This document shows, one piece after another, positions 9,210 through 61,404 of a stretch of DNA of 64,000 nt (position 1 is the first letter of the stretch; every line of letters begins with the position of its first letter). Made by a program: the position numbers and the translations under genes. This DNA is from an uncultured bacterium (GTDB lineage Bacteria; Patescibacteriota; Minisyncoccia; UBA6257; 2-01-FULL-56-20). The notes beneath the pieces are model-generated. The model was not told the DNA's origin and did no database searches. It worked only from the letters and a program-made list of their open reading frames with translations. The stretch is taken from contig CAWHOC010000005.1 in NCBI GenBank assembly GCA_963830935.1, positions 38,023 through 102,022 on the forward strand. The letters are read 5' to 3'.

Positions 9210-9860
9210 TTAGAGCGTCCAGCGGGCGGATGCGGCAACAATGACGAGCAGCGAGAAGAGCACACTCCCCGTGGCGAGCACTTTCGCGCGCGTGAGTTCA
9301 CCGAACACGTATTGCGGCACGAGATCGATCAGAATGGCGGCAAGGAGGAATATAATCGCCGACTGATAGAGGAAATCGAGGGGGAGGAACAGCCCGACGA
9401 TGATCAACTGCCACATAAGGATGAACGTCATCCAGCCGAGCATACGGCGGAACGGCTGGGGGGCTTCGGAAAAATTCTTTATAAAACTCGCGACCATCGC
9501 GCTGATGGCCACTGCAGCGACCAGGCCGTACAGGAGCGCGCGCAAGCCGAACGATCCGCCGACGGTCAGGAAAAAACTTCTGAGCAGCAGATACGACAAG
9601 AAAAGCATAAGGATTTCATACGCGGAACGCCGGTCGATGATGAGAAGGTCTTTTACAAGGAGAATGAAATAGAAGATGGCGACGAAGATGATCGCGTCCA
9701 GAATCCCCTGGCTCCCCAGTAAGGATATTAAAAGCAGTGCGAAAAAGGGCGTCGCAACTTTGCCGGCGCCCGTGATCGGAATGAAATAGAGGAAAAGCGC
9801 GACGATGAGAAAAAGCCAGAACGGCAACGCCCACCATGCGACACCAAAAATGACGGCCTT
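9210..9860 (-). CDS. polytopic membrane protein, function unknown
   Basis: About 7 hydrophobic helices. The track ORF 9210..9956 overlaps the clpB 3' end, so the true start probably lies downstream of 9956. Confidence 0.45.
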   Translation of the reverse strand, partial: KAVIFGVAWWALPFWLFLIVALFLYFIPITGAGKVATPFFALLLISLLGSQGILDAIIFVAIFYFILLVKDLLIIDRRSAYEILMLFLSYLLLRSFFLTVGGSFGLRALLYGLVAAVAISAMVASFIKNFSEAPQPFRRMLGWMTFILMWQLIIVGLFLPLDFLYQSAIIFLLAAILIDLVPQYVFGELTRAKVLATGSVLFSLLVIVAASARWTL

Positions 9861-12510
9861 AAGAAGTGAAGACCAGTTCGTTCGCTTTAAAGTTGACCTT
9901 AACTTTTCCACCATCTTTGAATTCGCCGCGGATGATCTTGTCCGCCAGCTTATCAAGGATAACCTTCTGCATCAATCGCTTCAAGGGGCGCGCGCCGTAT
10001 TCCGCGCTGAATCCTTCCTTGGCGAGGTGCGCGCGCGCCGCCGCCTCGACTTCCAGCTTGATCGCACGGTCCGCGAGGCGCTTCTCGATCAGCTTGATCT
10101 GGATGTCCACGATCTTGCCGATGTCCGCTTTATGGAGCGGATTGAAGATGACGACGTCGTCGATGCGGTTCAAAAACTCCGGACGGAAGCTGCCGCGCAA
10201 TGCCTCCATCACCTTTTCGCGGTAATCCCCTTCCTCAAGCGACGCCTGCTGGCTTTCCGCGCTGAACCCGATGCGCGACATGGCTTTGAGGTATTCGCTG
10301 CCAACGTTCGATGTCATGATGATGATCGAGTTCTTGAAGTTGACCACTTTGCCCTTGCTGTCGGTGAGGCGGCCGTTGTCCAACACCTGCAAAAGCAGGT
10401 TGAACACTTCGGGATGCGCTTTTTCTATCTCGTCAAAAAGGATCAAGCTGTACGGCCGGTGGCGAAGGATCTCGGTAAGCTGGCCGCCCTCCTCGTGGCC
10501 AACGTAGCCCGGCGGTGAGCCGATCAGCCGACTGACCGCGTGGCGCTCCATATACTCGGACATGTCCACGCGCACGAGCGCCTTTTCATCATTGAACATA
10601 AACTCCGCGAGCGTCCGGGCGAGCTCCGTCTTTCCAACCCCGGTGGGACCGAGGAACATGAATGAGCCGATCGGGCGGTTCTCGTCCGAAAGCCCCGCGC
10701 GGGAGCGGCGCAACGCGGAGGAAACCGAGGCGATCGCCTCATCCTGGCCGATCACGCGTTCGCGCAACACGTCCTCAATACGGATCAGCTTATCAGTATC
10801 CGTCTCGAGCATGCGCCGGAGGGGAATACCCGTCCAGACGGCCACGATGGCCGCCACGTCTTCCTTGTCCACGGATTCCTTGAGAAAACGCTCGCCGATT
10901 GCGCCTTTTGCCCGCTTGCCCGTCGACGGCCCGCCAAAATTCTTCTTTTCGAACATTTGAAAATCCTTCTCGGCGGCCGGCTGTTCGCCATACATGATCT
11001 GCGCCACGCGCTCGAGGTTGCCTTCACGCTCCGCGATCTCCGCCTCGCGCTTTAAGTTATCCACCTTTTGGCGAAGCTGGTGCAATGTCTCGAATTTGAT
11101 CTTCTCCGAATGCCACTTGCTCGAAAGCTCGTCGTTCTGCGTCTTCAGCTTCGCGAGCTCCTTCTCGATCGCCTTTAAACGATCGGTGGTGACCGACTTC
11201 TGCCCTTCCTGCGAAAGCGCCTGCTTCTCTATCTCCAGGCGCGTGATCTCGCGGCGCGCCTTGTCTATTTCCTTCGGCAAGCTCTCCGACTCCAACCGGC
11301 GCGCCGCGGCGGCCTCGTCGATGAGGTCAACTGCCTTGTCCGGCAAGAAACGGTCGGTGATGTAGCGCGCGGAAAGATTCACGGCCTCAACGATCGCCTC
11401 ATCGCTGATGCGCATGCCGTGGTGGATCTCATATTTTTCCTTGAGCCCGCGCAAAATGGAAATCGAGTCCTCAATGGACGGCTCCTCTACTATGATCGGC
11501 TGGAAGCGCCGCTCGAGCGCCGGGTCCTTCTCTATATACTTCTGATATTCGCGGATCGTGGTCGCGCCGATCGCGTGGAGCTCGCCGCGCGCGAGCGCGG
11601 GCTTGAGCAAATTGGACGCGTCGATCGCGCCTTCCGCGGCGCCGGCGCCGACGATCGTGTGGATCTCATCTATAAATAGGATGATGTTGCCGGAAGCATT
11701 CTTCACTTCCTTCATAAATGCCTTCAAGCGGTCCTCAAACTCGCCGCGGAACTTGGTTCCGGCGATGAGCGAGCCGAGATCTAACATTAATACTTGCTTG
11801 CCCTTAAGAAGCTCCGGCACGTCGCCCGAGGCGATGCGCTGGGCCAATCCTTCAACAATGGCGGTCTTTCCCACGCCCGGTTCGCCGATAAGGCACGGAT
11901 TGTTCTTGGTGCGGCGCGAGAGCACCTGCATAAGCCGGCGCAATTCTTCCTCGCGGCCGATGACCGGATCAAGCTCCCCCGCTTTGGCCTTATCGCTTAG
12001 ATTGATCGCGTATTTTTCCAACACCTGGAATTTGCTCTCCGGCGTCTCGTCCGTCACGCGCACGGAGCCGCGCAATTGCGCGAGCACGCGGAACGCGCTC
12101 TCGCGCCGCACGCCGAACTTCTCAAGCAACGACTTTGCCGTACCGGCGACATCAAGCAGAGCAAGCAAAAGATGCTCGCACGAGACGAACTCATCCTTCT
12201 GTTGCGCGGCCACCTTCGCCGCCTGGTCGAGTACTTTCATGAGCTCCTGAGAAAGATAGAGCTGCCCGAGCGCGCTGTTGCTCACGATAGGCGGAATGCG
12301 ATCAAGCTCTACCTCGATCTGTTCGTCCAATTGCTCAAGATTGACGCCGCAACGCTCCAACACCGGAATGACGAGCGACTGCTCGTCCTCAAGCAGGGCC
12401 GCGAGCAGATGCACCGACTTCAATTCTCCGTGATTCTTTTTTGCCGCGATCTCCTGCGCGTTCTGCAATGCTTCCTGGGCTTTTATAGTAAAACGATGAA
12501 AGTTTGGCAT
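9859..12510 (-). CDS. clpB: chaperone ClpB (Hsp100, two AAA+ domains with a middle coiled-coil)
   Basis: 883 aa. Clp_N, D1 Walker A GEPGVGKT, a long M-domain ([36 protein letters not shown]...), D2 GPTGVGKT, and the C-terminal Clp D2-small domain. Confidence 0.95.
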
Positions 12511-25560: not shown

Positions 25561-26253
25561 TTAATGATTATCCGACTGCGGCCGCTTCGCCCGTGCCATG
25601 TACCGCGGCTTCATGATCGCGCGCGGAAGCGCCTCTATATTCACGAACTCATCGGCGGCCTCCACAAGCTTTGTTGATGCACTCCTTCGGAACGAGGCGA
25701 TCTCGACCACTCGCCCACCTGCCCATTTTACGTAATTGACCAAGGGAATATAATCGCCGTCGCCGGTCACCAAAATGATCACATCCAGGAATGGCATCAT
25801 ACGGATGACGTCCACCGTGAGGCCCACATCCCAGTCGCCCTTCTTCAATCCGCCGGCGTAGATCTGTAAATCCTTCATGCGCAGCTCAAGGCCGGCTTTC
25901 TCCAGCGCTTCAAAGAAGCTTGCCTCGGAAGACATGCCGCCGTTCGCGCCGTCGCCGTTGCCGTTGCCGTTCGCGCCGTTGCCGGATACTGCCGACGCCG
26001 GCACGATGGACATCGCCGCCGCCTGATCCTTTTCCGCCATGCGCACGTGCCCGCGCGCCTGCTGCGGTTCCACGCCTTCGCTGCGCACCACGTACGCCAT
26101 CGCGCGGATCAGCTGCCGCCCCGCCACAAGATGCTTGATGAGCTCCGCGTAGTTCACCCGGCCCTGGTACAGGTTTTTCGCCGAGTGGTACAGGTTCGAC
26201 ACATCAACAAAAATCCCAACACGCTGGTTGGAATGGTTCGTTCCCGCTGCCAT
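25561..26253 (-). CDS. NYN/LabA-like (DUF88) PIN-fold nuclease domain protein
   Basis: VGIFVDVSNLYHS...IILVTGDGDYIPLV...RVVEIASF, with a low-complexity GNGANGNGNGDGANGG insert. Confidence 0.65.
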   Translation of the reverse strand: MAAGTNHSNQRVGIFVDVSNLYHSAKNLYQGRVNYAELIKHLVAGRQLIRAMAYVVRSEGVEPQQARGHVRMAEKDQAAAMSIVPASAVSGNGANGNGNGDGANGGMSSEASFFEALEKAGLELRMKDLQIYAGGLKKGDWDVGLTVDVIRMMPFLDVIILVTGDGDYIPLVNYVKWAGGRVVEIASFRRSASTKLVEAADEFVNIEALPRAIMKPRYMARAKRPQSDNH

Positions 26254-26519
26254 TATTTTTTAAGATCGAGCTTCTTCAAAAGTTTTTCGTACGAAGAAGG
26301 CTCGTGCTTCTTCATATACGCGAGCAATTTTCTGCGTTTGGATACCATCTTCAAAAGACCGCGGCGGGAATGATTGTCCTTCGGGTTTTTCTTGAGATGG
26401 GTGGCCAGCTCGTCGATCTGGCGCGAGGTCATCGCGATCTGCACCTGGGCGGAGCCGGTGTCTTTCTCGTGCGTCTTATGTTCCCCCACGATGCGGGATT
26501 TTACTCTCTTAGTAAGCAT
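26253..26519 (-). CDS. rpsO: 30S ribosomal protein S15
   Basis: MLTKRVKSRIVGEHKTHEKDTGSAQVQIAMTSRQIDELATHLKKNPKDNHSRRGLLKMVSKRRKLLAYMKKHEPSSYEKLLKKLDL. It is in frame with the upstream ORF, with no stop between them. Confidence 0.85.
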   Translation of the reverse strand: MLTKRVKSRIVGEHKTHEKDTGSAQVQIAMTSRQIDELATHLKKNPKDNHSRRGLLKMVSKRRKLLAYMKKHEPSSYEKLLKKLDLKK

Positions 26520-26522
26520 TAT

Positions 26523-28574
26523 AAGTGATGATACATCATTATCTAATAACTTAGCAAGGGGCACGGCCACTTTTCTATAGAGATAAAGGAAGAGAAATAT
26601 GCCGCCGCCGATGATGGAGGCGGTGATCGGCTGGATGATATCGGGCATGAGCATGAGGATGGCACAGGCGATCACGAATATCCCCGGCGAAAAAACGAGG
26701 AGGAGGAGTGGCAATACCCAAAGGACATACCACGGCATGAACCATGATGTCCCAAAAAAGAACAAAAACAGGAATGGGATGGAAAAACTTTCCGGAAGTT
26801 TTTTCTTCCGCGCGAAGATGACGAGGGAAATATAAAAAATGAGAACGCCGATCACACGCAAGATCAGTTCATTCCCCGAAAGCTTGTGAAGGAGGTCCGT
26901 GCCCAGGAGGGCGAATATGGGATCAAAGATATCGAGGGTCTGGTGAAAAAATCCGCCAAGGCCGACGACGGGACCGCCGAACGGAAGGTAGAATATCGCA
27001 AAGCCCGCGAGGAGCAGTGCCCCCGCGACGAGCGCGCGCCGGACCACCGCGCGAACCGGAAGGAGACCTCCGGAAAAAGTCATGAACACCGGGATCGGGA
27101 TAAGGAGCCATGGCACATACTTGAAAAATCCTCCGATCACGAGCGCGAGGATGCTCGCCCAGCCCTCATCGTTCAAAAAGAAATAGAATGCCAAAACGAT
27201 GGACGCGAGAATGAACACGTCCGCGTGGAGATCGATAAAAATTTCCTGGAACAGGAACGGATTCCATAGGATGAGCATAAAATAGTGCGGCCGGTTTTCG
27301 GCAGGGATGTTCATCCGGGCAAGTATCTTCCAAAATATCACGAGGGCGAAGCACGCCACGGCAAAGAAAAGTATCTTGAGCGCGACGATCGCCGCGAGCG
27401 GCGTTCCGAGGAGTGATGGCAGGAAAAGAGAAAAGACCCACAACGGGCCCTGGGCCATGACGAGGGTCGTCCACTGAGAGACCGGAGCGCTCCAGATGTC
27501 CATCGGGAGCATCGCGGGAGTGGTCGTATAGGGATTGAGATGGAAAAGCGAAAAGCCGCGCGTGAGGAGCAGATTCCAATACACGTCCTGTGACCGGTCG
27601 GGAAGCATGAGGAGGGTGATCAGGAAATACAGCGCGAAGAAAACGATAATGATGGTCATCGCGGTGCGCCATCGGGGACCGTTCGCATATCGCGAGGCTT
27701 TGAAAAGCACAAAAAAATAAAGAGTCAGCGCGAGCACCACCGCAAGGACGCCCCATGGAAGCTGTCCCGTCAGCATATCGTACCCCTGCCCGTAGGCCGC
27801 GATCACGTTGGCCGCGAACAAGATCGCGAGAATGCTCCCCGCGGCGATCAACGCATTCATATGATGGGAAGCCATCCTCCCAAAAAATCGCAAGCCGTGC
27901 ACGATCTCGAGCGGAGGGTTGGCAACTTTGCTTTTCCTTCCGGGAAATCTGGTTTCAATCCAGGAGACAGGGACTTCCGTTATGCGCAGGCCGTTTTCCG
28001 TTCCGCGGATGATCACCTCCGAGTTCAAAAACCATCCGTTCTCGGTGCATGATGCCATGATCTCCGCCGCGCGGGCATTTGCGGCGAAGACCCCGCATTG
28101 AGCATCGGACAGGGTCACGCCGAAGAGCGCTTTCATAAAGAACGCCCAGCCCCGGGTCATGATCTTTCGGTACCACGTGCGAAAGCCGGTGCGTTTTCCA
28201 AAAACAAGATCCGCGGTCTTGTTTTCAAGCGGAGCGGAAAGTCTCTGATGATCCTCCAGCTCCACCGGCAGGTCGGCATCGACAAATAGATAGTAAGAAG
28301 CGGGGTAGGATGCTACCGGCTTGGCGAAAAGCCGCGCCGCGGCCCGCTGCGGGAAGATGAAGATAATGGACATGCCGATTCCGGGCGGCGATCTCCTTCC
28401 TATATCGCCCGTGCCATCGTGCGAACCGTTATCCGCGATGAGAATTGCCCAGGAGGCGTCCTTATCCTGCCACCGAGAGGTCAGGAACGATGAAAGCTCA
28501 TGGATCGATCTTTCGAGTACGGGCGCCTCGTTATGAACAGGCACGATGATCAGGTGTGAGATCTTTTGATCCAT
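26523..28574 (-). CDS. GT2-family glycosyltransferase fused to a large polytopic membrane domain; 3' boundary undefined (no stop codon before rpsO)
   Basis: The N-terminus LIIVPVHNEAPVLERSIHEL...ILIADNGSHDGTGDI is GT-A/GT2 (DPM1-like). It is followed by about 12 TM helices. The track ORF 26253..28574 reads straight into S15. Confidence 0.65.
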
Positions 28575-51552: not shown

Positions 51553-52107
51553 TTAATGATTCTTTGGCTCTCTCGTGGGCGCGCTTGGTATCGGGTGCGC
51601 CGCCGCGCTTGCAGCTCTTGGCGCCGGGCGCTTATGCGCCGGCTTCAGATAATCGCTCGCCTGCTTCAATACCTTCCGCGTGTCGCCATACTTTTTGCCA
51701 ATCACGTTCAGCGCGTCGTGATAAAGGAACCAGCCGTAGCCGCTGTGCTCGCGCGGCTCGATACGGATGTCCGCCTTGTGCGTCTCCGCCAAAAATAAAA
51801 TGACTGTATCGTAGATCCCCTGGTTGCCGATCTTAAAATAAAATCGTTCGTACGCGCGGAAGTTCGGGAGCATGCGAAGTTCCGTTTTTTTGATCCCCGT
51901 CTCTTCCTCGAGTTCGCGCAGGGCGGTGTCGATGCTCCGTTCGCCGGGCTTGAAGTGCCCTTTCGGGAAATTCCAGTAATTGCCGCGCCGATAGAGCAGC
52001 AGGAATTTTATTCCGTCCGTCGTTTTGCGGTATACCACGAAGCCGGCCACCACCTGCTTCTTGGTCGGGATGCGCTTCGATTCGTCTATCTCACGGCTTG
52101 ACGGCAT
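51553..52107 (-). CDS. NUDIX hydrolase
   Basis: Nudix box GHFKPGERSIDTALRELEEETGI (GX5EX7REUXEEXGU). Confidence 0.8.
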   Translation of the reverse strand: MPSSREIDESKRIPTKKQVVAGFVVYRKTTDGIKFLLLYRRGNYWNFPKGHFKPGERSIDTALRELEEETGIKKTELRMLPNFRAYERFYFKIGNQGIYDTVILFLAETHKADIRIEPREHSGYGWFLYHDALNVIGKKYGDTRKVLKQASDYLKPAHKRPAPRAASAAAHPIPSAPTREPKNH

Positions 52108-52612: not shown

Positions 52613-54403
52613 TTATTTCTTTTTTAAAAACGCCAACATTTTTTCGAGAGGCCACGCGTTGACGATATCTTTGCGCTCCGCCCAGCCGCGGCGCGCCTGC
52701 GCGATGCCGCATTCGAGGAATGCGAAGTGCGCCACGGCGTGCGCGTCCGAATCGATGCTCATCTTCACTTCGGCCTCCACACACTTGCGGATGTGCTCAT
52801 CTTTGAGATCGCTGCGCTCGGGAAGCGCGTCGATCTCCATGATCGTGCCGGTCTTCTTTGCCGTCGCTGATGATCTCGTCAATATCGATATCGATCGGCG
52901 GCCGCTTGTTGATGAGTCGTCCGGTGGGATGGAAGAGTATGTCCACGTGCGGGTTCGATATCGCGCGAACGACGCGTGCGGTCTGTTCCGCGCGCGGTAA
53001 AGTAAAGAACGAGTGCACCGACACACCGACGACATCCAGTTTTGAAAGCGTCTCGTCATCCAAGTCGAGCGTGCCGTCTTTCAAAATATCGCACTCGGTG
53101 CCTTTCAATATTTTTATTTTGCCCGCCAGTTTTTTGTTGACCGCGTCGATCTCTTTCCATTGCGCGCGGATGCGTTTTTCGTCGAGGCCGTGCGTCATCG
53201 CAAGGCGCTTCGTATGATCCGTGATCACGATATACTTCAGCCCGCGCGCGGCGGCGGCTTTGGCCATCGCTTCAATAGAATCGGCGCCATCGGTCCAGTT
53301 GGTCTGCGTTTGGAGATCACCTTGGAGATCACCGTAGCCGATCAGCTTCGGCAGGCCAGGTTTCTTCGTTCGAACTCGCGATCGCGGCCTGCACTTCGCC
53401 GGTGTTCTCGCGCAATTCCGGCTCTGGGTATGCCATGCTTTAATGCTTTATAAACGTCTTCTTCCGTGCGGCCTGCCACGCGCGTGCCCTCCTGCTCCGC
53501 GCCTTTTTTGGTAGCCCTTTTTTGATCTTGAAGAGGCCGTACTCGTTGAGCGTGAGGCCGAGGTCGTTCGCGCGCTTGCGGATCACGACGTTGTGATCTT
53601 TGGAGCCGGTAAAATAGTTGAGCGCGGCGCCGTAACGACTCCGCCGGCACGACGCGCAAGTCGATGTTCAGTCCCGGCGTACTTTGATCGATGACTTCGT
53701 CGGACCTTTCGCGATGACCGTCATGATGCCGGCGATCTTCGTCGATAAAATAATCCATGATCGCTTCGGGTTTGGATGGACACGGCAAGGATGTCGAGAT
53801 CGCCCATCGTTTCCTTCCGCCGCCGCGCGGAACCGGCGACGGTCACCTTTGAAACGCCCGGCACGCTCGCCGATGCCGCTTCTCAAGGTTGCGCACTCGA
53901 TTAAACATGTAACCGATGATGAACCGCACGCCCGAGCCCTTCGCAAACTCGATCCCTTTCAAAATCTTCTCCTCGCTCTTTTTGCCGAATCCTTCAAGCA
54001 CACCGATCTTCCCCTTCTTCGCGGCGGCCTCGAGGTCTTTCAGATTCTTCACGCCGAGTTCTTGATATAACTTCTGGATGGATTTTGGCCCGAGCCCTTC
54101 CACGCGGGCGAGCTCGTCCAGGCGCACCGGCGTTGCCTTCTTCAACTTTTCATATTCCGTACTGCGCCCTTTCGTCACAAGCTCCTCTATTATCTCCGCG
54201 ATGGACTGTCCCACGCCGGGAATTTCTTTCAGCGCCTTGATACCGCCGCGCGCGTAGATTGCCGACACTTCTTCCTCTAGCGCGCCCACCGTCTCCGCCG
54301 CCTTCTCAAACGCGCGCGGCTTGAATTGCACGTGTTGCATCTCTAAATATTCGCCGATCTGGCGCAGGACTTCGGAGACGGATTGATTTGAGGCGGACAT
54401 CAT
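52613..54403 (-). CDS. DNA polymerase X family with C-terminal PHP domain, fragmented by at least 4 frameshifts
   Basis: 53843..54403 has the N-terminal HhH/8-kDa and fingers region ([13 protein letters not shown]..., [22 protein letters not shown]). 53342..53788 has the palm ([10 protein letters not shown]...). 52797..53267 and 52613..53059 carry the PHP motifs ([24 protein letters not shown]). Confidence 0.75.
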
Positions 54404-54406
54404 TTA

Positions 54407-55399
54407 TTAATTTGCACTACAAGTAACATTACTGCACAATATCCCCGTTTTGGCGTTATATGATTTATTCAATGAGGAACCCTGTATATTCACATTCCAT
54501 ACTGGTGCGCCGTTATATACATTCAAACTAACATATAATGAAATACTAGAATTACCATTAAGTGCCGTCTTGAGATACTCTAGTCCCCCGGTAGACATAA
54601 ATTCATTAACTACTTCTGACGAACCAATCGTCCATGGAGGTATTTCTGTTTCAAATCCCTGAGCAATAGGGGGAGTGGCAGTATATTGGTCGGGAACTGT
54701 TCCTCCATTATCATTCCACGCATATCCAATTCCATCGGTAGCGGTTGTCGGAAAATAAAATCCGTAAGTCCTCTGAATGCCCTGAAATGAACCTATAGTG
54801 CAACGATAATCCAGTTGGGTGAGAGCGCCATTCGTGGCATCCAAATGATAATTTTCCATTATATTTTTTAATGCGCCGGCAATGTTTGCCATATCTTGCG
54901 AATAAGTTTGCCCTAATGAGTCACATACTGAGATAGACGCACTCGTGTCCGGGGTTGCTACGATCTCCGTTTTAACCGTTGGAGCGGGGAAAACCCATCC
55001 TGTCCAGGCGAACGAAGCCCCATAAACAATGACTGAAGAAATAATAATTACCCCGATGGCACCGACCACTCTTACCCAAGACCGAATACTTTCCGATGTC
55101 AAAACCGCGAGAGGGATTGCAGGCGAGATGAGTAAAACACAAATTGGGAAAAGAATAATAAAAAGGAGCCCTCCTACCCCCTGAGCGCCATTGGGACCCA
55201 AAGAGTTTACGAGTTCCACAAAGACCATGAGGATGGCCGTTATAATAATACCGACCTCCGAAGCCCTCAATAGAGGGAGGGTTTCTTTATGCCTTTTTGC
55301 GAAAATATAGAAAGCAAGAATAGTAATGCCGTAGCCTAAAATAAAACTTATGGCGAGACCATCCCAAGAAAAAGCTCCCATTAGCTTGAATAATAACAC
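54407..55399 (-). CDS. membrane protein with large extracytoplasmic C-terminal domain, function unknown
   Basis: About 5 N-terminal TM helices, then a T/S/N/G-rich domain. AT-rich 3' half. Confidence 0.4.
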   Translation of the reverse strand: MLLFKLMGAFSWDGLAISFILGYGITILAFYIFAKRHKETLPLLRASEVGIIITAILMVFVELVNSLGPNGAQGVGGLLFIILFPICVLLISPAIPLAVLTSESIRSWVRVVGAIGVIIISSVIVYGASFAWTGWVFPAPTVKTEIVATPDTSASISVCDSLGQTYSQDMANIAGALKNIMENYHLDATNGALTQLDYRCTIGSFQGIQRTYGFYFPTTATDGIGYAWNDNGGTVPDQYTATPPIAQGFETEIPPWTIGSSEVVNEFMSTGGLEYLKTALNGNSSISLYVSLNVYNGAPVWNVNIQGSSLNKSYNAKTGILCSNVTCSAN

Positions 55400-55407
55400 A
55401 CTGAGAT

Positions 55408-56085
55408 TTACGCCACCGTGTCCCCCGGCTTCCGCTCCTCTGCGGTCTCGGCGGCGTTCACCGCGGCGCGCGTTGAGGTCGTCGGCTTCGGCAGGATCAG
55501 ATCCGGCACGGCAAGGAGCACGAACGCGGCGATGAATGCCATGATGCCGGCGCCCACAAAGACCACATTGTAACCAAGCGTGCCGGCGATGACACCGCCG
55601 AGGAATCCGGCGACGCCCGCGCCCACACCACTCACCGACGAATCAAGCGACCAATCGAGCGAGATCGCATTCTTGTCCAGGTGCCGCGAATAGATAGTGG
55701 GCCACGATGCGTAATAGAACGCGAAAGCGATGGCCTGGACCGCGTGGATAAGATAGAGTTCCCACACCCGCGTGACCCAGCACATCGCGATCGCGGAAAT
55801 GCCGACGAGCAGCAATCCGCCGACGAGCGCCATAAAATCGTCATGTTCGCCGGGCGTACTGTCGAGATAGTTCGCGATGGGAATTTGTGCGACGGAGCGG
55901 ACGATCCAGTAGATCGCCGCCGCGATGCCGATGACCATGAGCGATCCTCCCACCACACGCTGGATGATGAACACGGAGAACACCGGATCGATCAGCCCCC
56001 ATCCGGCAAGTAAAAAGAAATCCGAGATCACGAAAAACTTCACCACCCGGCCCACCTTTACATTGATATTTACTTTAATGCGCAT
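55408..56085 (-). CDS. 6-TM membrane protein (MFS-half-like)
   Basis: 225 aa with six predicted helices. No signature motif recognised. Confidence 0.4.
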   Translation of the reverse strand: MRIKVNINVKVGRVVKFFVISDFFLLAGWGLIDPVFSVFIIQRVVGGSLMVIGIAAAIYWIVRSVAQIPIANYLDSTPGEHDDFMALVGGLLLVGISAIAMCWVTRVWELYLIHAVQAIAFAFYYASWPTIYSRHLDKNAISLDWSLDSSVSGVGAGVAGFLGGVIAGTLGYNVVFVGAGIMAFIAAFVLLAVPDLILPKPTTSTRAAVNAAETAEERKPGDTVA

Positions 56086-56115
56086 AGTTTCTTTCTCTTA
56101 TTATACTGATTAGCG

Positions 56116-56193
56116 AAACAGAAGCGATGTCTTTTTATACGCTCACCGTCCTCGTGTGGCATTTGCGTATAAAAAGGACATCGCTTCTGTTTC
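56116..56193. repeat. long-stem hairpin, copy B of the conserved-loop family; overlaps the stop codon of the Clp ATPase gene
   Basis: gaaacagaagcgatgtctttttatacgc - TCACCGTCCTCGTGTGGCATT(t) - gcgtataaaaaggacatcgcttctgtttc. It has the same loop as copy A and an unrelated stem. Confidence 0.55.
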
Positions 56194-58708
56194 ACGCTTG
56201 GTTTACAAAATCGAATTTGTCATCTTTCACCACGCACTGCACCTTCGCGCCCTTTGCGATCTTCTTGGAGAGCAACGCCTCGGAGAGCGGCGCGCGGATG
56301 TATTCATCGATGGCGCGCCGGAGCGGCCGCGCGCCGTACGCGGGGTCGTAGCCAAGCTTGGCGATTTTCCCGACGGCATCGGGACTGAACGAAAGTATGA
56401 TTCCCTGCTCGTGCAGGGCGGCGGTGAGTTCGCTCAAATTGATGTTCACGATCTGCGGAAGCTGGGCAAGCTCCAGGTTCCGGAACACGATGATCTTCGA
56501 AAATCGGTTGAGAAGTTCCGGCTTCAGTACATCCACAAGCCGCGCCCTCAAATAATCCGCGATCTCCGCCATGGACTGCCCTTTCGCGAGCGCATCGTTG
56601 ATGATGTCCGAGTGCGCGTTCGAAGTGGCGATCACGATCGTGTTCGTAAAATCGATGACGCGGCTCATGTTGTCCGTGAGACGGCCGTCATCCAATACTT
56701 GCAGGAACAAATTTAAAATATCCGGGTACGCCTTCTCAAACTCGTCGAGGAGCACCAGGCTGTATGGCTTTTCGCGCACGGCGTCGGTGAGCGCGCCGCG
56801 CACGGTGCCGTCCGGCGATCCGATAAAGCGGAAGAAGCTCGTCTTATCCTGATACTCCGTCATGTCAAAACGGACCATCAGTTTCTCCGAGCCGAATTGG
56901 ATCTCCGCGAGCTGTTTCGCGAGCTCCGTTTTTCCGACGCCGGTCGGCCCCACAAAAAGGAAGCTCGCAATCGGACCGCCCTTGCGCGCGAGGCCGCTCC
57001 GGTATTCACGCAATGCCTGCGCGACGGCCTTGACCGCCTCGTCCTGCCCGATGATGCGCTCGTGGATGATGTCCTCCATGTGCAACAGCGTCTCCGCTTC
57101 ATTTCCCTCCGCCTCGTGCATAGGGATGTTCACCTTCTCTTCGGCGACGGCCGTCACGCGGTCGGGCGTCACCACTTTCTCCCCGCGCCGCTCGGCGTCC
57201 ACGACGGCGCTCTTCAGCAGCTCCTCGGCGCTCGAGGGAAGGTGCTTATCGTGCAGATATTTCTTCGCGAGCACCACCGCGCGCTTGATCGCGCCAAAGC
57301 TCACCGCGATCTTGGATCGCCGCTCAAGCAAAAAACTTTCGTAGATCAGGATCTTTTCGGCGTCCGCCTCATTGATCTCGTTCACCATGATCGTCTCGAA
57401 GTTCCCGACGAAGTCGCTGCGCGGCTCGATGAACTCCTTGAACTCGTGCGGGTAGGACGTGCCCACGATCGGGAACCGGTTCGAGGTGATGACGGACATC
57501 AAGGCATCCGCCGCGGAAAGGTACGCGGCGCCCGAGGTGCGTACAAGATTATGGATGTCGGGAATAAAGAGGATGATGTTCCCCGCGGTAAGGATCTCAT
57601 CCACCACGTTCTTTAGGCGGGCGTTCAATTCCTCCGGCGCGGCGCCAGCGATAAGGTTCTGCATCTGCAGACCGACGAGGCGCCGGTCGAACAGTCCTTC
57701 GGGAACATCGTCCTTCGTCAGGCAATAGGCAAGATGCCGGATGATGGCCTCCTTCCCGCTTCCCGGCTCGCCGATGAGGATCGCGTTCGGATCGATGGGC
57801 TTGCCGATCGCCTCGATGAGATGCTCGTACTCCTGTTCGTGGCCGATGAGAAATCCCGCCTGGGCGTCCCGCGCGAGATCGGTATAGTCAATGCCATACT
57901 TGTCGAGCACCGGCGTCGGGCGCGATGTCCACGCGCGGTTCATGATGCGATGCGGGATCACGCGGTGGGTCTCCATCGCGAATCCGCCCACCACGTCCGG
58001 GAGCCGCGAGAACGGCCCGATCCTCGTGGCGAGCGCGCTGAAAATGAGCGCGCGCTCAAGATCGCCTTCTTCTATATTGAACAGCGAGAAGAGCCGGTCG
58101 AGCGACTCGTCCGCCATCGCGGGGAGCGCCGAAAAGAGGTCCGACGGCGTGATGAACTCGTGCCCCGCGCCCGCCGCGGAGGCGAACGCGCGCGCGGCGA
58201 GCGGCGTCATAACGTCGGCATACGCCTTCCCCGGCGGCGCGGCGGGGTCTTGCATCAGCGTGTCGAGTTTTGCCTTGAATGCTTTCGGGTCCACGTCCAG
58301 GCGCTGAAGGCCGTTCTGCACCTGGGGAAGTTCGAACAGGCGGCCGGTGAGCTCAAGGATGAAGTTCTTTTTTGTGATGATGCAACGGTCTACCGCGCGC
58401 TCGAGCATGGCGAACGCCGCCGCGTTCATCGTTTCGGCAAGATTCACCCTTCCCGCTTTCGGCAGTTCGGAGATCGGCGTATCACCTTCGCCGCGGTGGA
58501 TCAGGAGGTCGATGAGCACGAGCACGAGAAATATCCCGACATAGAACAGGGTGGGAATATCGCGGGCAAGGAGGAACACGAATGTCGCGACGACGATCAC
58601 AAGGTAGGAAACATAACTGACCACGCGGACGAGCATCCTTCCCGCGATCGTCATGCGCAGGCGCGCGTCGTCAAAATAAAGATCGTACTTAGAGATGTTT
58701 TGCGGCAT
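56192..58708 (-). CDS. membrane-anchored Clp/Hsp100-family AAA+ ATPase with degenerate D1 and intact D2
   Basis: N-terminal hydrophobic helices (RMLVRVVSYVSYLVIVVATFVFLLA, LFYVGIFLVLVLIDLLI). D1 has Walker A GEPGSGKE and Walker B ILFIPDIH, both non-canonical. D2 has GPTGVGKT and LVLLDEFEKA. C-terminal Clp small domain (ARPLRRAI). Start taken at an internal ATG to limit overlap with the upstream gene. Confidence 0.75.
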   Translation of the reverse strand: MPQNISKYDLYFDDARLRMTIAGRMLVRVVSYVSYLVIVVATFVFLLARDIPTLFYVGIFLVLVLIDLLIHRGEGDTPISELPKAGRVNLAETMNAAAFAMLERAVDRCIITKKNFILELTGRLFELPQVQNGLQRLDVDPKAFKAKLDTLMQDPAAPPGKAYADVMTPLAARAFASAAGAGHEFITPSDLFSALPAMADESLDRLFSLFNIEEGDLERALIFSALATRIGPFSRLPDVVGGFAMETHRVIPHRIMNRAWTSRPTPVLDKYGIDYTDLARDAQAGFLIGHEQEYEHLIEAIGKPIDPNAILIGEPGSGKEAIIRHLAYCLTKDDVPEGLFDRRLVGLQMQNLIAGAAPEELNARLKNVVDEILTAGNIILFIPDIHNLVRTSGAAYLSAADALMSVITSNRFPIVGTSYPHEFKEFIEPRSDFVGNFETIMVNEINEADAEKILIYESFLLERRSKIAVSFGAIKRAVVLAKKYLHDKHLPSSAEELLKSAVVDAERRGEKVVTPDRVTAVAEEKVNIPMHEAEGNEAETLLHMEDIIHERIIGQDEAVKAVAQALREYRSGLARKGGPIASFLFVGPTGVGKTELAKQLAEIQFGSEKLMVRFDMTEYQDKTSFFRFIGSPDGTVRGALTDAVREKPYSLVLLDEFEKAYPDILNLFLQVLDDGRLTDNMSRVIDFTNTIVIATSNAHSDIINDALAKGQSMAEIADYLRARLVDVLKPELLNRFSKIIVFRNLELAQLPQIVNINLSELTAALHEQGIILSFSPDAVGKIAKLGYDPAYGARPLRRAIDEYIRAPLSEALLSKKIAKGAKVQCVVKDDKFDFVNQA

Positions 58709-59036
58709 AGAAAAGGATGACGGCGGGAATGGCAATCCATATGATGTAGATGAAGGCGAACACGATCGCAATCAAGAGATAAAATATGCCGCCGATCGCC
58801 ACACGCCCCGCCCGGAACACGATTCCGAGGATCCTGCCGATCACGCTGTAATCCTTATAGAGCGGCTCGAAGAAATGCCGCAGGGTGATGGCGACCGCGA
58901 ACGATTGGTCCGCGGCGGTGATCGCTCCCATAAAACGCCGCGCGATCATGCGCGACCCGTCAACATACCAATGATGAAAAAAGTCCACAAAGCGGTAGAA
59001 AAACCGCCGGGCAAGATAGACGACCGAAAAATCCAT
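58689..59036 (-). CDS. small membrane protein
   Basis: 115-aa track ORF with two C-terminal TM helices. Confidence 0.4.
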   Translation of the reverse strand: MDFSVVYLARRFFYRFVDFFHHWYVDGSRMIARRFMGAITAADQSFAVAITLRHFFEPLYKDYSVIGRILGIVFRAGRVAIGGIFYLLIAIVFAFIYIIWIAIPAVILFYAAKHL

Positions 59037-59972: not shown

Positions 59973-60851
59973 TTAAAGGTCCAAGGTTGAGGTAACCGCC
60001 ACGTCGCTGTCGTCGGCGTGTATGGGCGAGGAAGTGGCGCTGCCACCCAATAAATGATGATCGTGCCGGGTTCCGCCATATCGCGATTGCGAAGTGGGCG
60101 GGATGAACGAGGCCGGGCGCCCGGACGACGACGCGCTGTCACACTGCTCATTGAACTCGGCGAATCCGTTCGCGCGATGGGCGAGCGTTGCTTCCAAGTG
60201 TCCGATGAGAACGCCCGACGTGCTCACGTCGAACGCATTGCAATAGACACCGAGCGACCCTTCATCAGCCGATGTTGATGCCACCACTGGCGATGATGTC
60301 GCGAGTGTGGCCGCCATAATAATGGAGGATGTTGACGACGTCGCTTCCCCGCCGCCGGTGGAAGTGTTTTCCGCGAGTGCGCCGAGTGATGTATTAATAT
60401 CTTGATCGAGGTCGGACGTCAGTTGCGGAATGAGCGTGCTCGACGGCGCCGCCACCTGGAGCGCCGCGATCTCATCCGCGCGGCGCACGGCAAAGGTCGC
60501 CTGCAGCTGGGGCTTTTCGGATGCGGGCGCAAGAGCAACTTGCACGTTCTCGCTAAGCCGCTTCAGCGGATAGAGTGGGTTCGTGGCGGAAACATTCGCG
60601 GTATCGGCATATGCGGAAAGCCCCACACCAACGCAGAACATAGCAAGGGCGCCGATGCCAACCTTAAAGAAAGCGCTTATATATGTCGGTCGATCGGCCA
60701 CAGAACGGCGCGCGTTGCGTGCGCCCTCGCTCGCATCAAAAGCCGCCAGGAATCGTTCCTTGCCCTGTGCGACGAATTCCTGCCGCGGCGCGAGGCTCTT
60801 TTTCGCGTCGCGCGGAAGGTTTTTAGTTTTTGATGAAGTGAAAAATCTCAT
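59973..60851 (-). CDS. putative anti-sigma factor (single-pass membrane protein with T/S-rich extracytoplasmic domain)
   Basis: Immediately downstream of, and overlapping, the ECF sigma factor gene. Central TM segment IGALAMFCVGVGL. Confidence 0.45.
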   Translation of the reverse strand: MRFFTSSKTKNLPRDAKKSLAPRQEFVAQGKERFLAAFDASEGARNARRSVADRPTYISAFFKVGIGALAMFCVGVGLSAYADTANVSATNPLYPLKRLSENVQVALAPASEKPQLQATFAVRRADEIAALQVAAPSSTLIPQLTSDLDQDINTSLGALAENTSTGGGEATSSTSSIIMAATLATSSPVVASTSADEGSLGVYCNAFDVSTSGVLIGHLEATLAHRANGFAEFNEQCDSASSSGRPASFIPPTSQSRYGGTRHDHHLLGGSATSSPIHADDSDVAVTSTLDL

Positions 60852-61404
60852 TTTGTGAATTCTTTATGTATCTTTTCCCGGAGACGTAGCGCCGCCACCC
60901 GCAGCGTTCCTTCCGGTTTCTCAAGGATGTGTGCGATGTCTTTATAGGACATCTCTGCGGCAAAGCGCAACTCGAACAATTCCTGTTCTTCGGGCGTGAA
61001 TGTGCCGACGACCAACCGTAAGCGGCGATAGGCCAGCACATTGTCCGTGTCGGGGATCTCCCCCACCGCCATTCCGGCGACCTCGTCATCTTCGAATTGT
61101 GAAAATGGCACGGCTTTCTTTTGGCGATAGTGATCGATGAGCGTGTTGCGCGCCATCCGCCAGAACCATACCGTGAATCTGCCTTTCTTGGGGTCGAAAC
61201 TGCCGACGCGCTCGATGAGCTTTATGAAAATTTCCTGCGAAAGATCTTCCGCGGCTTCCCGGGATCCGGTGCGCGAAAAGATGAACCCATAGAGCTTGGC
61301 GGCAAGCTCATCGTACAGCGCTGCCCGCGGCCGTCCGGTCGCCTTTCTGCATCTTGATCACAAGGCGGTCGAGGCGGTCTCGCTGTATGTCTTTGAGTTC
61401 CATA
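60848..61404 (-). CDS. ECF (sigma-70 family) RNA polymerase sigma factor, frameshifted near 61320
   Basis: Track ORF 60848..61156 is region 4 (...YKDIAHILEKPEGTLRVAALRLREKI). Upstream, in another frame, is region 2 (AALYDELAAKLYGFIFSRTGSREAAEDLSQEIFIKLIERVGSFDPKKGRFTVWFWRMARN), preceded by MELKDIQRDRLDRLVIKMQKGD. Confidence 0.7.

Follow-up and report, generated by a model that had tools for sequence, protein, structure and literature searches.

A putative membrane-anchored Hsp100 of Parcubacteria with a degenerate first ATPase module, tyrosine-free pore loops and a small membrane partner gene

The analysed window is a 64,000-nucleotide stretch of contig CAWHOC010000005.1 (assembly GCA_963830935.1, positions 38,023 to 102,022 of the forward strand) from an uncultured bacterium of the Minisyncoccia. 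It encodes a canonical ClpB of 883 residues, with Clp_N, AAA, AAA_lid_9, AAA_2 and D2-small domains and a long insert between its D1 and D2 modules, and a second, distinct Hsp100-family protein, which we call TM-Clp (Table 1). TM-Clp is composed of an N-terminal transmembrane (TM) hairpin, a diverged N-domain, a linker motif, a degenerate D1 module, and a D2 module followed by a ClpB_D2-small domain. The gene of a 115-residue membrane protein, u115, overlaps its start. On identity and architecture we are highly confident that TM-Clp is a Parcubacteria-specific, membrane-anchored class-I Hsp100/Clp paralogue. The original prediction, made from the letters of this DNA, had already separated the second Hsp100 from the canonical ClpB and proposed that it was tethered to the membrane, and both points are borne out below.

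Identity and membrane anchor of TM-Clp

The mechanically called open reading frame (ORF) of TM-Clp runs from a TTG at 58771 down to 56192, and its first ATG is at 58708 (product MPQNISKYDL...). The best 120 database relatives are full-length and 62–91% identical; nearly all are 815–862 residues long and begin at the equivalent MPQ, and we therefore place the start at 58708. The relatives are named 'ClpC', 'ClpA', 'Clp protease ATP-binding subunit' or 'hypothetical' in the databases.

TM-Clp has the two-ring layout of class I Clp/Hsp100 proteins, with tandem AAA+ modules of which the second is an AAA_2 domain (residues 579–738, Pfam E value 1.9e-48) followed by ClpB_D2-small (745–824, 7.9e-23). 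The first AAA+ module gives weak AAA and AAA_lid_9 signals just below the Pfam threshold. The nearest solved structures are those of Thermus thermophilus ClpB (1qvr, phmmer E value 2.4e-115) and Bacillus subtilis ClpC (8.4e-115). An AlphaFold2 model built from a 68-sequence family alignment has a mean predicted local distance difference test (pLDDT) score of 76, and its top Foldseek matches are ClpC and ClpB. The scores against the NCBIfam models of named subfamilies lie far from the curated cut-offs: 475.9 bits versus 1232.1 for ClpB (TIGR03346), 409.8 versus 993 for ClpA (TIGR02639), 401.4 versus 1900 for ClpK, 379.6 versus 1900 for ClpG, and 362.6 versus 885 for ClpV/TssH. TM-Clp is 30% identical to the ClpB of the window in D1 and 39% in D2 (BLASTP). 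By these sequence comparisons, TM-Clp fails the defining tests of every named Hsp100 subfamily, yet belongs to the Hsp100 superfamily.

The distribution of the family was determined by searching the N-terminal 265 residues of TM-Clp against 1.84 billion cluster representatives. At E ≤ 1e-3, 212 representatives of 50%-identity clusters match, and every full-length match is 780–851 residues long and carries the region at its own N-terminus, which makes it a single architecture. A profile of the distant members retrieves 544 proteins at E ≤ 1e-10; their named sources are Wolfebacteria, Jorgensenbacteria, Brennerbacteria, Liptonbacteria and Paceibacterota, all within the NCBI 'Parcubacteria group'. 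Relatives occur in 215 of 185,579 species genomes (one genome per species) scanned with two family motifs, one of which was the linker. All of the 80 loci retrieved come from metagenome-assembled genomes of Patescibacteria/Parcubacteria, labelled Paceibacterota, Minisyncoccia or Liptonbacteria; the generic 'Saccharibacteria' label on some of them stems from one binning project. The nearest genome is the soil metagenome-assembled genome Candidatus Paceibacterota SMAG_U7734, with 90% amino-acid identity. Judging from the sequences sampled, the TM-Clp family is confined to the Parcubacteria group. Motif states of the family were scored in 118 close relatives (at least 62% identity) and 36 distant relatives (22–41% identity over the N-region).

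The TM hairpin consists of two helices connected by a short outer loop. The hydropathy of TM-Clp peaks at residues ~28–48 and ~51–70; in a 19-residue Kyte-Doolittle window, values above 1.6 occur only near residues 30–48 and 52–66, and the maximum elsewhere in the protein is 1.22. AlphaFold2 places helices at residues 21–47 and 52–70 with pLDDT of 79–87. In 118 orthologues, the N-terminal tail contains on average 4.4 lysines and arginines, the outer loop is 4.4 residues long, and TM1 is essentially free of charges. TM2 bears a near-invariant Asp67 close to its cytoplasmic end. The positive-inside rule predicts a cytoplasmic location for both hairpin ends, which matches the requirement of an ATPase; the AAA+ body would be in the cytoplasm, with almost nothing outside the cell. 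The two strongly hydrophobic helices of the original prediction are thus retained, as is the tether, and the same N-terminal anchor is found in orthologues: of 153 full-length relatives, 147 contain 36 or more hydrophobic residues in their first 110, and 140 have no further hydrophobic segment.

The N-domain is formed by eight helices spanning residues 96–227 in the AlphaFold2 model. Its alignment to the N-domain of ClpB by hhalign is weak (E value 0.07) and in register. The Pfam Clp_N model matches 3 of 13 family members (best E value 3e-4) and is precomputed for many relatives, with no match in TM-Clp of the window. The N-domain is followed by a linker with the consensus (h)MNRAWT(S/A)RPTPxLD, which is kept in all 36 distant members examined despite the low identity of their N-regions. 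Residues 230–233 and 235–261, just ahead of the motif, are modelled with low confidence in the AlphaFold2 monomer. Since the motif is near-invariant yet preceded by low-confidence residues, we suggest that the linker may mediate an interaction.

The ratios of non-synonymous to synonymous substitution (omega, Nei-Gojobori) of TM-Clp to seven orthologues are 0.05–0.24 for the TM, N, D1 and D2 regions; the linker is a short region with noisier values in the more saturated pairs. The ratios indicate that every domain of TM-Clp is under purifying selection. They also bear on the possibility that the gene is an artefact or is decaying, with an N-terminus created by a frame error, or with motifs altered by sequencing errors or pseudogenization. 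The window does hold an apparently fragmented PolX gene and an odd in-frame fusion ORF, both described below. However, an architecture of 835–850 residues with the same motif states recurs in hundreds of independent assemblies, and the omega values are low in all domains. The orthologues share the ATG of TM-Clp and align collinearly with it from there on. The hydrophobic region is in the Clp frame past this conserved start, and the upstream ORF, which the original prediction considered as its possible source, is a conserved 115-residue gene of its own. Similarly, the unusual D1 residues, which correction of errors might have restored to canonical ones, are conserved across the family under purifying selection. 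Comparative conservation and omega refute the artefact and decay explanations, to which we assign a negligible probability.

Table 1. Features of the TM-Clp locus and other genes of the window discussed in the text.
Feature	Position	Strand	Basis
TM-Clp gene, membrane-anchored Hsp100 paralogue, 838 residues (stop codon included)	56192..58708	-	ORF listing, Pfam, NCBIfam, PDB phmmer, 120 homologues, AlphaFold2
TM helical hairpin, residues 21–70 (TM1 21–47, outer loop of ~4 residues, TM2 52–70)	58499..58648	-	hydropathy, AlphaFold2, conservation
Diverged Clp_N-like N-domain, residues ~85–230	58019..58456	-	AlphaFold2, weak profile matches
Family-defining linker motif HRIMNRAWTSRPTP, residues 253–266	57911..57952	-	near-invariant in distant members
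D1 pseudo-ATPase module, residues 267–520	57149..57910	-	ClpB/ClpC alignments, family motif states, omega 0.05–0.13
D2 ATPase module and ClpB_D2-small domain, residues 545–838	56195..57076	-	Pfam, alignments, family motif states
D2 pore loop 1 (IGSPDGTVRGALT), residues 629–641	56786..56824	-	HMMER, BLASTP, MAFFT
u115, 115-residue single-pass N-in membrane protein, proposed obligate partner	58689..59036	-	synteny, AlphaFold2, topology
Half-size (6-TM) MFS-like protein, 225 residues, facultative downstream neighbour	55408..56085	-	Pfam MFS_1, 3.2e-15
Long perfect-stem hairpin, 83 nucleotides, from one base before the TM-Clp stop	56113..56195	-	RNA fold
Canonical ClpB	9859..12510
330-residue protein	54407..55399	-
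PolX, apparently broken into several ORFs	52613..54403	-
PolX, HHH_8/HHH_5 part	53843..54403
PolX, PHP fragment	52797..53267
NUDIX protein	51553..52107
Sigma-70 region 4-only protein and DUF5667 protein	59973..61156	-
Sigma-70 region 4-only protein	60848..61156	-
SPFH/Band_7 protein, 434 residues	31334..32638	+
GT2-S15 ORF	26253..28574	-

Catalytic modules, pore loops and docking elements

The D1 module of TM-Clp deviates from canonical Hsp100 proteins at each of its functional sites. The Walker A motif (residues 313–320) is GEPGSGKE instead of GEPGVGKT, and the position of Walker B is occupied by ILFIPDIH instead of ILFIDEIH, the acidic DE pair being replaced by PD (IPD, residues 382–384). 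Pore loop 1 reads AGAAPEE opposite the canonical AGxK(Y/F)RGEFE; it is one residue shorter and lacks the aromatic residue of KYRG. At the site of the arginine fingers, VGNFE replaces ERRFQ, so that both arginines of RRF give way to GNF. The GKE, IPD, A(A/P)PEE and G(A/N)F states are near-invariant among the 118 close relatives. In the 36 distant members, Walker A drifts: the residue after GK is E, D, T, S, Q, H, R, G or K, and five members have lost the P-loop lysine. None of the 36 has the acidic pair of Walker B, the pore aromatic or the arginine finger.

The non-canonical Walker motifs and the missing catalytic glutamate had led the original prediction to an inactive-looking D1. Alignments with ClpB and ClpC uphold the loss of catalytic residues, and the degeneration extends to the pore-loop aromatic and both arginine fingers. 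D1 is as constrained as D2 by omega, and we therefore interpret it, from its sequence, as a catalytically inactive pseudo-ATPase that is maintained rather than decaying.

The D2 module retains the catalytic motifs of an Hsp100 motor. Walker A (GPTGVGKT) and sensor 1 (TSN) are the same as in canonical proteins, and Walker B (LLDEFEKA versus LFDEIEKA), the arginine finger (NRF versus NRI) and sensor 2 (GARPLRR versus GARPLKR) are also present. The catalytic motifs are invariant among the distant members. A very divergent member, P0376, is an exception, with GPIGVGKK, LLNNLEKA, TSH, LNQF and LGTKKINR at the corresponding sites; by its sequence, the entire protein may serve in this lineage as a scaffold without enzymatic activity, or the gene may be a pseudogene.

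The pore loop 1 of D2 departs from this pattern, and the description of D2 as fully canonical in the original prediction holds for Walker A and B, sensor 1, the arginine finger and sensor 2, but not for the loop. The sequence GSPDGTV----RGALT (DGTV-RGA) is opposite the canonical GYVG(Y/H)EEGG, with the tyrosine lost and four residues deleted. Three independent alignments, by HMMER against two PDB chains, by BLASTP and by MAFFT, agree on this assignment. The GSPDG--RG loop is near-invariant in the 118 close relatives. None of the 36 distant members has the tyrosine or the four residues in this loop, the tip of which differs from member to member (T, K, Q, E, S, G and others). Pore-loop-1 aromatics are the residues by which Clp/Hsp100 proteins, FtsH and Msp1 grip and thread their substrates. 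No family-wide gain of an aromatic residue that could compensate for the loss maps to the channel loops of the TM-Clp family. Tyr396, from the region of D1 pore loop 2, was considered as a candidate and rejected, as it is conserved among close relatives only.

TM-Clp also lacks the elements by which Hsp100 proteins dock to their partners. In ClpB and ClpC, the M-domain couples the ATPase to DnaK or docks MecA. In the phmmer comparison with PDB sequences the M-domain is absent from TM-Clp, as the alignment of D1 runs directly into that of D2 (query 531 = TtClpB 416, query 511 = TtClpB 519), which leaves about 100 residues of T. thermophilus ClpB (417–518) unmatched; BLASTP against the ClpB of the window agrees. 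ClpA aligns with TM-Clp as a single stretch over residues 269–831. The ClpP-docking loop is absent as well: there is a gap opposite 'krnkyvgfn' of B. subtilis ClpC, the region is free of gaps relative to T. thermophilus ClpB, and no [ILV]G[FL] tripeptide occurs at residues 697–730 in any family member examined. The check for an IGF/LGF loop that accompanied the original prediction was thus negative for TM-Clp and its relatives alike.

The docking elements bear on two conventional functions. TM-Clp could be a membrane-tethered disaggregase of the ClpB type that acts with DnaK and DnaJ on membrane aggregates, considering that its best scores are to ClpB (476 bits for TIGR03346; 2.4e-115 for 1qvr) and that the region of the ClpP loop is ClpB-like. 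Nevertheless, it lacks the DnaK-binding coiled coil of the M-domain, has an inactive D1 and neither of the pore tyrosines, scores far under the ClpB cut-off of 1232, and shares its genome with a canonical ClpB, which makes this function improbable. Alternatively, as the automatic annotation implies, it could be a ClpA/ClpC-type unfoldase that feeds ClpP. The database names and the ClpA-like D1-D2 junction without an M-domain agree with such a role, but the [ILV]G[FL] loop is deleted relative to B. subtilis ClpC in the whole family, the score of 410 bits compares with a ClpA cut-off of 993, and the pore tyrosines are missing, and we regard it as highly improbable.

The u115 gene and the genomic neighbourhood

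The stop codon of u115 is within the TM-Clp gene, and the two genes overlap by 20 nucleotides (ATGCCGCAAAACATCTCTAA). A u115 homologue was found by tblastn directly upstream and on the same strand in all 83 loci compared, usually with an overlap of 4–20 nucleotides, and in three of three further distant loci, including those from Wolfebacteria and Brennerbacteria (86 of 86 in total). It is likely, given this gene arrangement, that TM-Clp and u115 are translationally coupled. The 410 database homologues of u115 are all ~115 residues long and all annotated as 'hypothetical', and u115 has no match in Pfam, NCBIfam or PADLOC.

The AlphaFold2 model of u115 (pLDDT 91) consists of a helix of residues 2–46, a turn, and a 49-residue helix of residues 65–113. 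The end of the second helix, residues 83–108 (about 26 residues), is uncharged. Ten lysines and arginines precede this TM segment and seven residues follow it, and therefore the N-terminus is placed inside the cell. The model describes u115 as an N-in single-pass protein with a cytoplasmic helical hairpin of about 80 residues. The original prediction had offered an adaptor-regulated unfoldase as one possible role of TM-Clp; the invariable position of u115 directly upstream echoes this idea, but we only infer that u115 binds TM-Clp.

The TM hairpin, the MNRAWTxRPTP linker, a D1 without the DE and RR residues, a D2 pore without tyrosine, and u115 upstream delimit the proposed TM-Clp/u115 family. 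All five features are present in the gene of the window, and the set holds across the 118 close and 36 distant relatives and the 86 loci.

In 43 of 75 loci, the next gene downstream of TM-Clp on its strand encodes a half-size MFS-like protein, mostly after a gap of less than 40 nucleotides; the two genes overlap in a locus from Brennerbacteria (L086). The half-MFS protein is a third membrane component, common but not indispensable. Both genes are part of a conserved block with the order beta-CASP, LOG, permease, UDG, u115, Clp, (MFS), PolX, NUDIX, L20 and IF3. Reading a function of TM-Clp from this wider block was tried and rejected, as the order reflects synteny of the clade and only u115, and in part the half-MFS gene, are tightly coupled to TM-Clp.

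The fixed position also bears on a possible role in anti-phage defence, in analogy to the ClpB-D2-like ATPases of Dodola (DolB) and of the candidate system PDC-M37. TM-Clp matches the PADLOC models PDC-M37B (1.1e-33) and DolB (1.6e-29). The ClpB of the window, however, scores higher on the same models (145 versus 115 bits), which points to generic D2 homology; TM-Clp is at one fixed place in a block of core genes in about 80 species and not in a variable island, and u115 matches no PADLOC model. We consider a defence function scarcely credible.

A long hairpin with a perfect stem begins one base before the stop codon of TM-Clp. It has a stem of about 30 base pairs and a folding free energy of -48.9 kcal/mol (z -9.35), and none of 200 shuffled sequences folds as well. 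The original prediction had called this element copy B of a hairpin family; the hairpin is real, but no related copy is present in the window at up to three mismatches, and the link to TM-Clp is incidental. A comparably stable 3' structure occurs in only 7 of 78 orthologous loci, with a similar hairpin of a 35-base-pair stem at the same site in one locus (L005) and none in the closest orthologue (L004). A role of the hairpin in the TM-Clp system was rejected for the lack of conservation in orthologues and of related copies in the window. The hairpin is a lineage-specific intergenic element that may be a terminator or a palindromic repeat, and it is unrelated to the function of TM-Clp. A TATAAT-like box and an AG-rich stretch are present 3' of the hairpin, ahead of the half-MFS gene.

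Several other genes of the window were observed during the analysis. The gene located between the half-MFS and PolX genes encodes a 330-residue protein that has hydrophobic segments at its N-terminus and matches no Pfam family. In two loci with called genes and a half-MFS gene (L085 and L086), PolX directly follows the half-MFS gene, and therefore the 330-residue ORF looks like a lineage-specific insertion in the conserved block. The PolX gene of the window appears broken into several ORFs of different frames, including an HHH_8/HHH_5 part and a PHP fragment; in the orthologous loci it is intact and encodes about 575 residues. It is either a pseudogene or affected by insertion and deletion errors. 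The NUDIX gene is next, as in the orthologues. Just past UDG, two genes upstream of the u115-Clp operon, the gene of a 102-residue protein with sigma-70 region 4 only overlaps the start of that of a 292-residue DUF5667 protein, which looks like a sigma/anti-sigma-like pair. The window also encodes an SPFH/Band_7 membrane-scaffold protein; SPFH proteins (HflK/C) cage FtsH in other bacteria. In an uninterrupted ORF of 773 residues, an N-terminal GT2 glycosyltransferase domain (9–131) is joined to a long hydrophobic stretch of the multi-pass type and to the whole of ribosomal protein S15 (692–771, Pfam 3.6e-28). The ORF may be a genuine in-frame run-on or fusion, or the result of a lost stop codon or an assembly error.

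Proposed mechanism and comparison with known systems

By homology with its nearest relatives, TM-Clp would assemble into hexamers. The D1 modules would form a rigid structural and assembly ring that does not hydrolyse ATP, with D2 as the sole motor, and the face of the N-domains and the mouth of the channel would be directed at the membrane. We hypothesize that u115 acts in fixed stoichiometry as a cofactor or adaptor, its cytoplasmic helical hairpin being docked to TM-Clp on the side of the N-domain and D1, and that the MNRAWTxRPTP linker serves as an interaction motif inside the TM-Clp/u115 assembly. The machine would run without ClpP and without DnaK. ATP-driven movements of D2 would serve to remodel, assemble or release one dedicated client or complex at the membrane, possibly with u115 itself as a part of it and, in the loci that encode it, the half-MFS protein. 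The mechanism as a whole, a membrane machine powered by D2, scaffolded by D1 and equipped with a fixed small cofactor, is tentative.

Since both rings are without an aromatic paddle and the tip of the D2 loop is not conserved, TM-Clp most likely does not thread arbitrary polypeptides processively, as far as its sequence tells. We favour non-processive remodelling, assembly or release of a dedicated membrane client by analogy with known machines, with a probability of roughly 0.4–0.5. Several observations weigh against this interpretation. The adjacency and overlap of u115 and TM-Clp indicate co-expression, not physical contact, and the wider synteny block, with UDG, PolX, NUDIX and L20, supplies no functional clue. 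A segment similar to pore loop 2 of D2 (EYQDK) and the GRLTD hairpin are retained in TM-Clp. Loss of the aromatic residues does not strictly exclude translocation, as one specific substrate could be engaged by other contacts.

The latter points are shared with the explanation that we rank second, a threading extractase similar to FtsH or Msp1. A hexamer under the membrane would pull membrane or secretory proteins through a channel with non-aromatic loops, and release them for refolding or to a separate protease. The predicted topology directs the mouth of the channel to the membrane, D2 is a complete ATPase with its secondary channel elements in place, and an inactive D1 combined with a motor D2 is a known design for extraction from membranes, used by Pex1/Pex6. 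On the other hand, both pore-loop-1 aromatics are absent from the whole family, the D2 loop is four residues shorter with a variable tip, TM-Clp has neither a protease domain nor a ClpP loop, and its outer loop of about four residues leaves no room for a substrate-sensing periplasmic domain of the FtsH kind. We consider threading extraction unlikely. The proposal of the original prediction that TM-Clp acts like FtsH, as an unfoldase in membrane quality control, is not supported, in view of the same missing protease domain, ClpP loop and pore-loop-1 aromatics of both rings.

The preferred non-processive remodelling can be extended further. TM-Clp, u115 and, where present, the half-MFS protein could constitute an unrecognized ATP-driven membrane machine restricted to Parcubacteria, in which hydrolysis by D2, transmitted through the rigid D1, moves an 18-helix intramembrane assembly or a dedicated client; we regard this extension as doubtful. 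If it is true, the machine could assemble, gate or extract a specific component of the envelope. Parcubacteria have tiny genomes, and their envelope biology is largely unknown; the TM-Clp/u115 pair represents a conserved, clade-specific membrane function in this group.

Hsp100/Clp proteins are the textbook example of soluble motors that thread their substrates, and their mode of action is defined by the pore-loop tyrosines together with M-domain or ClpP loops. The TM-Clp lineage appears to have kept the D2 engine under strong selection, lost every element for gripping substrates and coupling to partners, and gained an anchor and a fixed small membrane partner. TM-Clp therefore probably operates unlike every bacterial Clp ATPase characterized to date. 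An intrinsic TM hairpin, a pseudo-ATPase D1, tyrosine-free pores and a dedicated small membrane partner are not known to have been described in combination. A full-text search of an incomplete literature library found no account of a membrane-anchored bacterial Hsp100 or of the TM-Clp family. The sequences of the family have been public for years under generic names, and automatic annotation misleadingly calls its members 'ClpC' or 'Clp protease ATP-binding subunit'.

ClpB/Hsp104 is closest to TM-Clp in sequence and fold, and shares with it the tandem AAA+ modules, the ClpB_D2-small domain, a putative Clp_N-like N-domain and the absence of a ClpP loop. Unlike ClpB/Hsp104, TM-Clp has a TM hairpin, no M-domain, a non-hydrolysing D1, no pore-loop tyrosines and a dedicated membrane partner gene. 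ClpA and ClpC have the same order of N-domain, D1 and D2, and ClpA also does without a long M-domain; TM-Clp differs from them in the missing IGL/VGF ClpP loop, the inactive D1, the lack of pore tyrosines and the membrane anchor. Some Hsp100 proteins work at membranes together with membrane proteins, as do HSP101 in the HSP101-PTEX150-EXP2 complex (PTEX) of Plasmodium and Hsp93 at the Tic complex of chloroplasts. These are soluble, active rings with pore tyrosines that thread cargo and have no intrinsic TM anchor, unlike TM-Clp.

FtsH is a membrane-anchored hexameric AAA+ protein with two TM helices per subunit and a ring under the membrane, as predicted for TM-Clp. However, TM-Clp shows none of the other hallmarks of FtsH, whose only AAA+ module is of the classic clade and has an aromatic FVG pore loop, and which carries an M41 protease and, separating its TM helices, a periplasmic domain; a Peptidase_M41 match is absent from the Pfam results of TM-Clp. 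Pex1/Pex6 is a type-II AAA+ complex in which the D1 ring is an inactive scaffold and D2 the motor; the small tail-anchored proteins Pex15/Pex26 tether it to the membrane. Its D2 ring keeps aromatic pore loops and threads the substrate. Pex1/Pex6 and Msp1 belong to a different AAA+ clade from TM-Clp. Msp1 keeps aromatic pore loops in its single ring and threads its substrate (PMC7018516).

Torsins, which act with LAP1 or LULL1 in the endoplasmic reticulum and nuclear envelope of metazoans, are related to Hsp100 D2 modules, lack aromatic pore loops and have an N-terminal hydrophobic anchor, like TM-Clp (PMC5425593). They are associated with the membrane through this N-terminal domain, depend on type-II membrane cofactors, and operate in a non-threading, cofactor-dependent mode (PMC5425593). 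The cofactor spans the membrane once and places a degenerate AAA+ module beside the active one (PMC5425593); the parallels in TM-Clp are the predicted partner u115 and D1, respectively. The systems differ in that Torsins have a single AAA+ module and receive the arginine finger from the AAA+-like cofactor, whereas TM-Clp has two modules, its own D2 arginine finger (NRF) and the degenerate D1 in cis. Furthermore, u115 is a helical hairpin in the model and the Torsin cofactor has an AAA+-like fold, and Torsins are eukaryotic and luminal while TM-Clp is bacterial and predicted to be cytoplasmic. The resemblance is striking despite these differences, but it is one of design, not ancestry, and serves as a functional analogy only. 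By this analogy, the function of TM-Clp is probably nearer to Torsin-LAP1/LULL1 or Pex1/Pex6-Pex15/26 than to FtsH or ClpB. The two-gene bacterial system offers a natural experiment on Hsp100 rings without tyrosines, a question still open for Torsins. If the doubtful extension of the preferred interpretation is true, TM-Clp, u115 and, where present, the half-MFS protein would form a bacterial counterpart of the Torsin-cofactor system that arose by convergence, and the Hsp100 family would gain a new mode of action.

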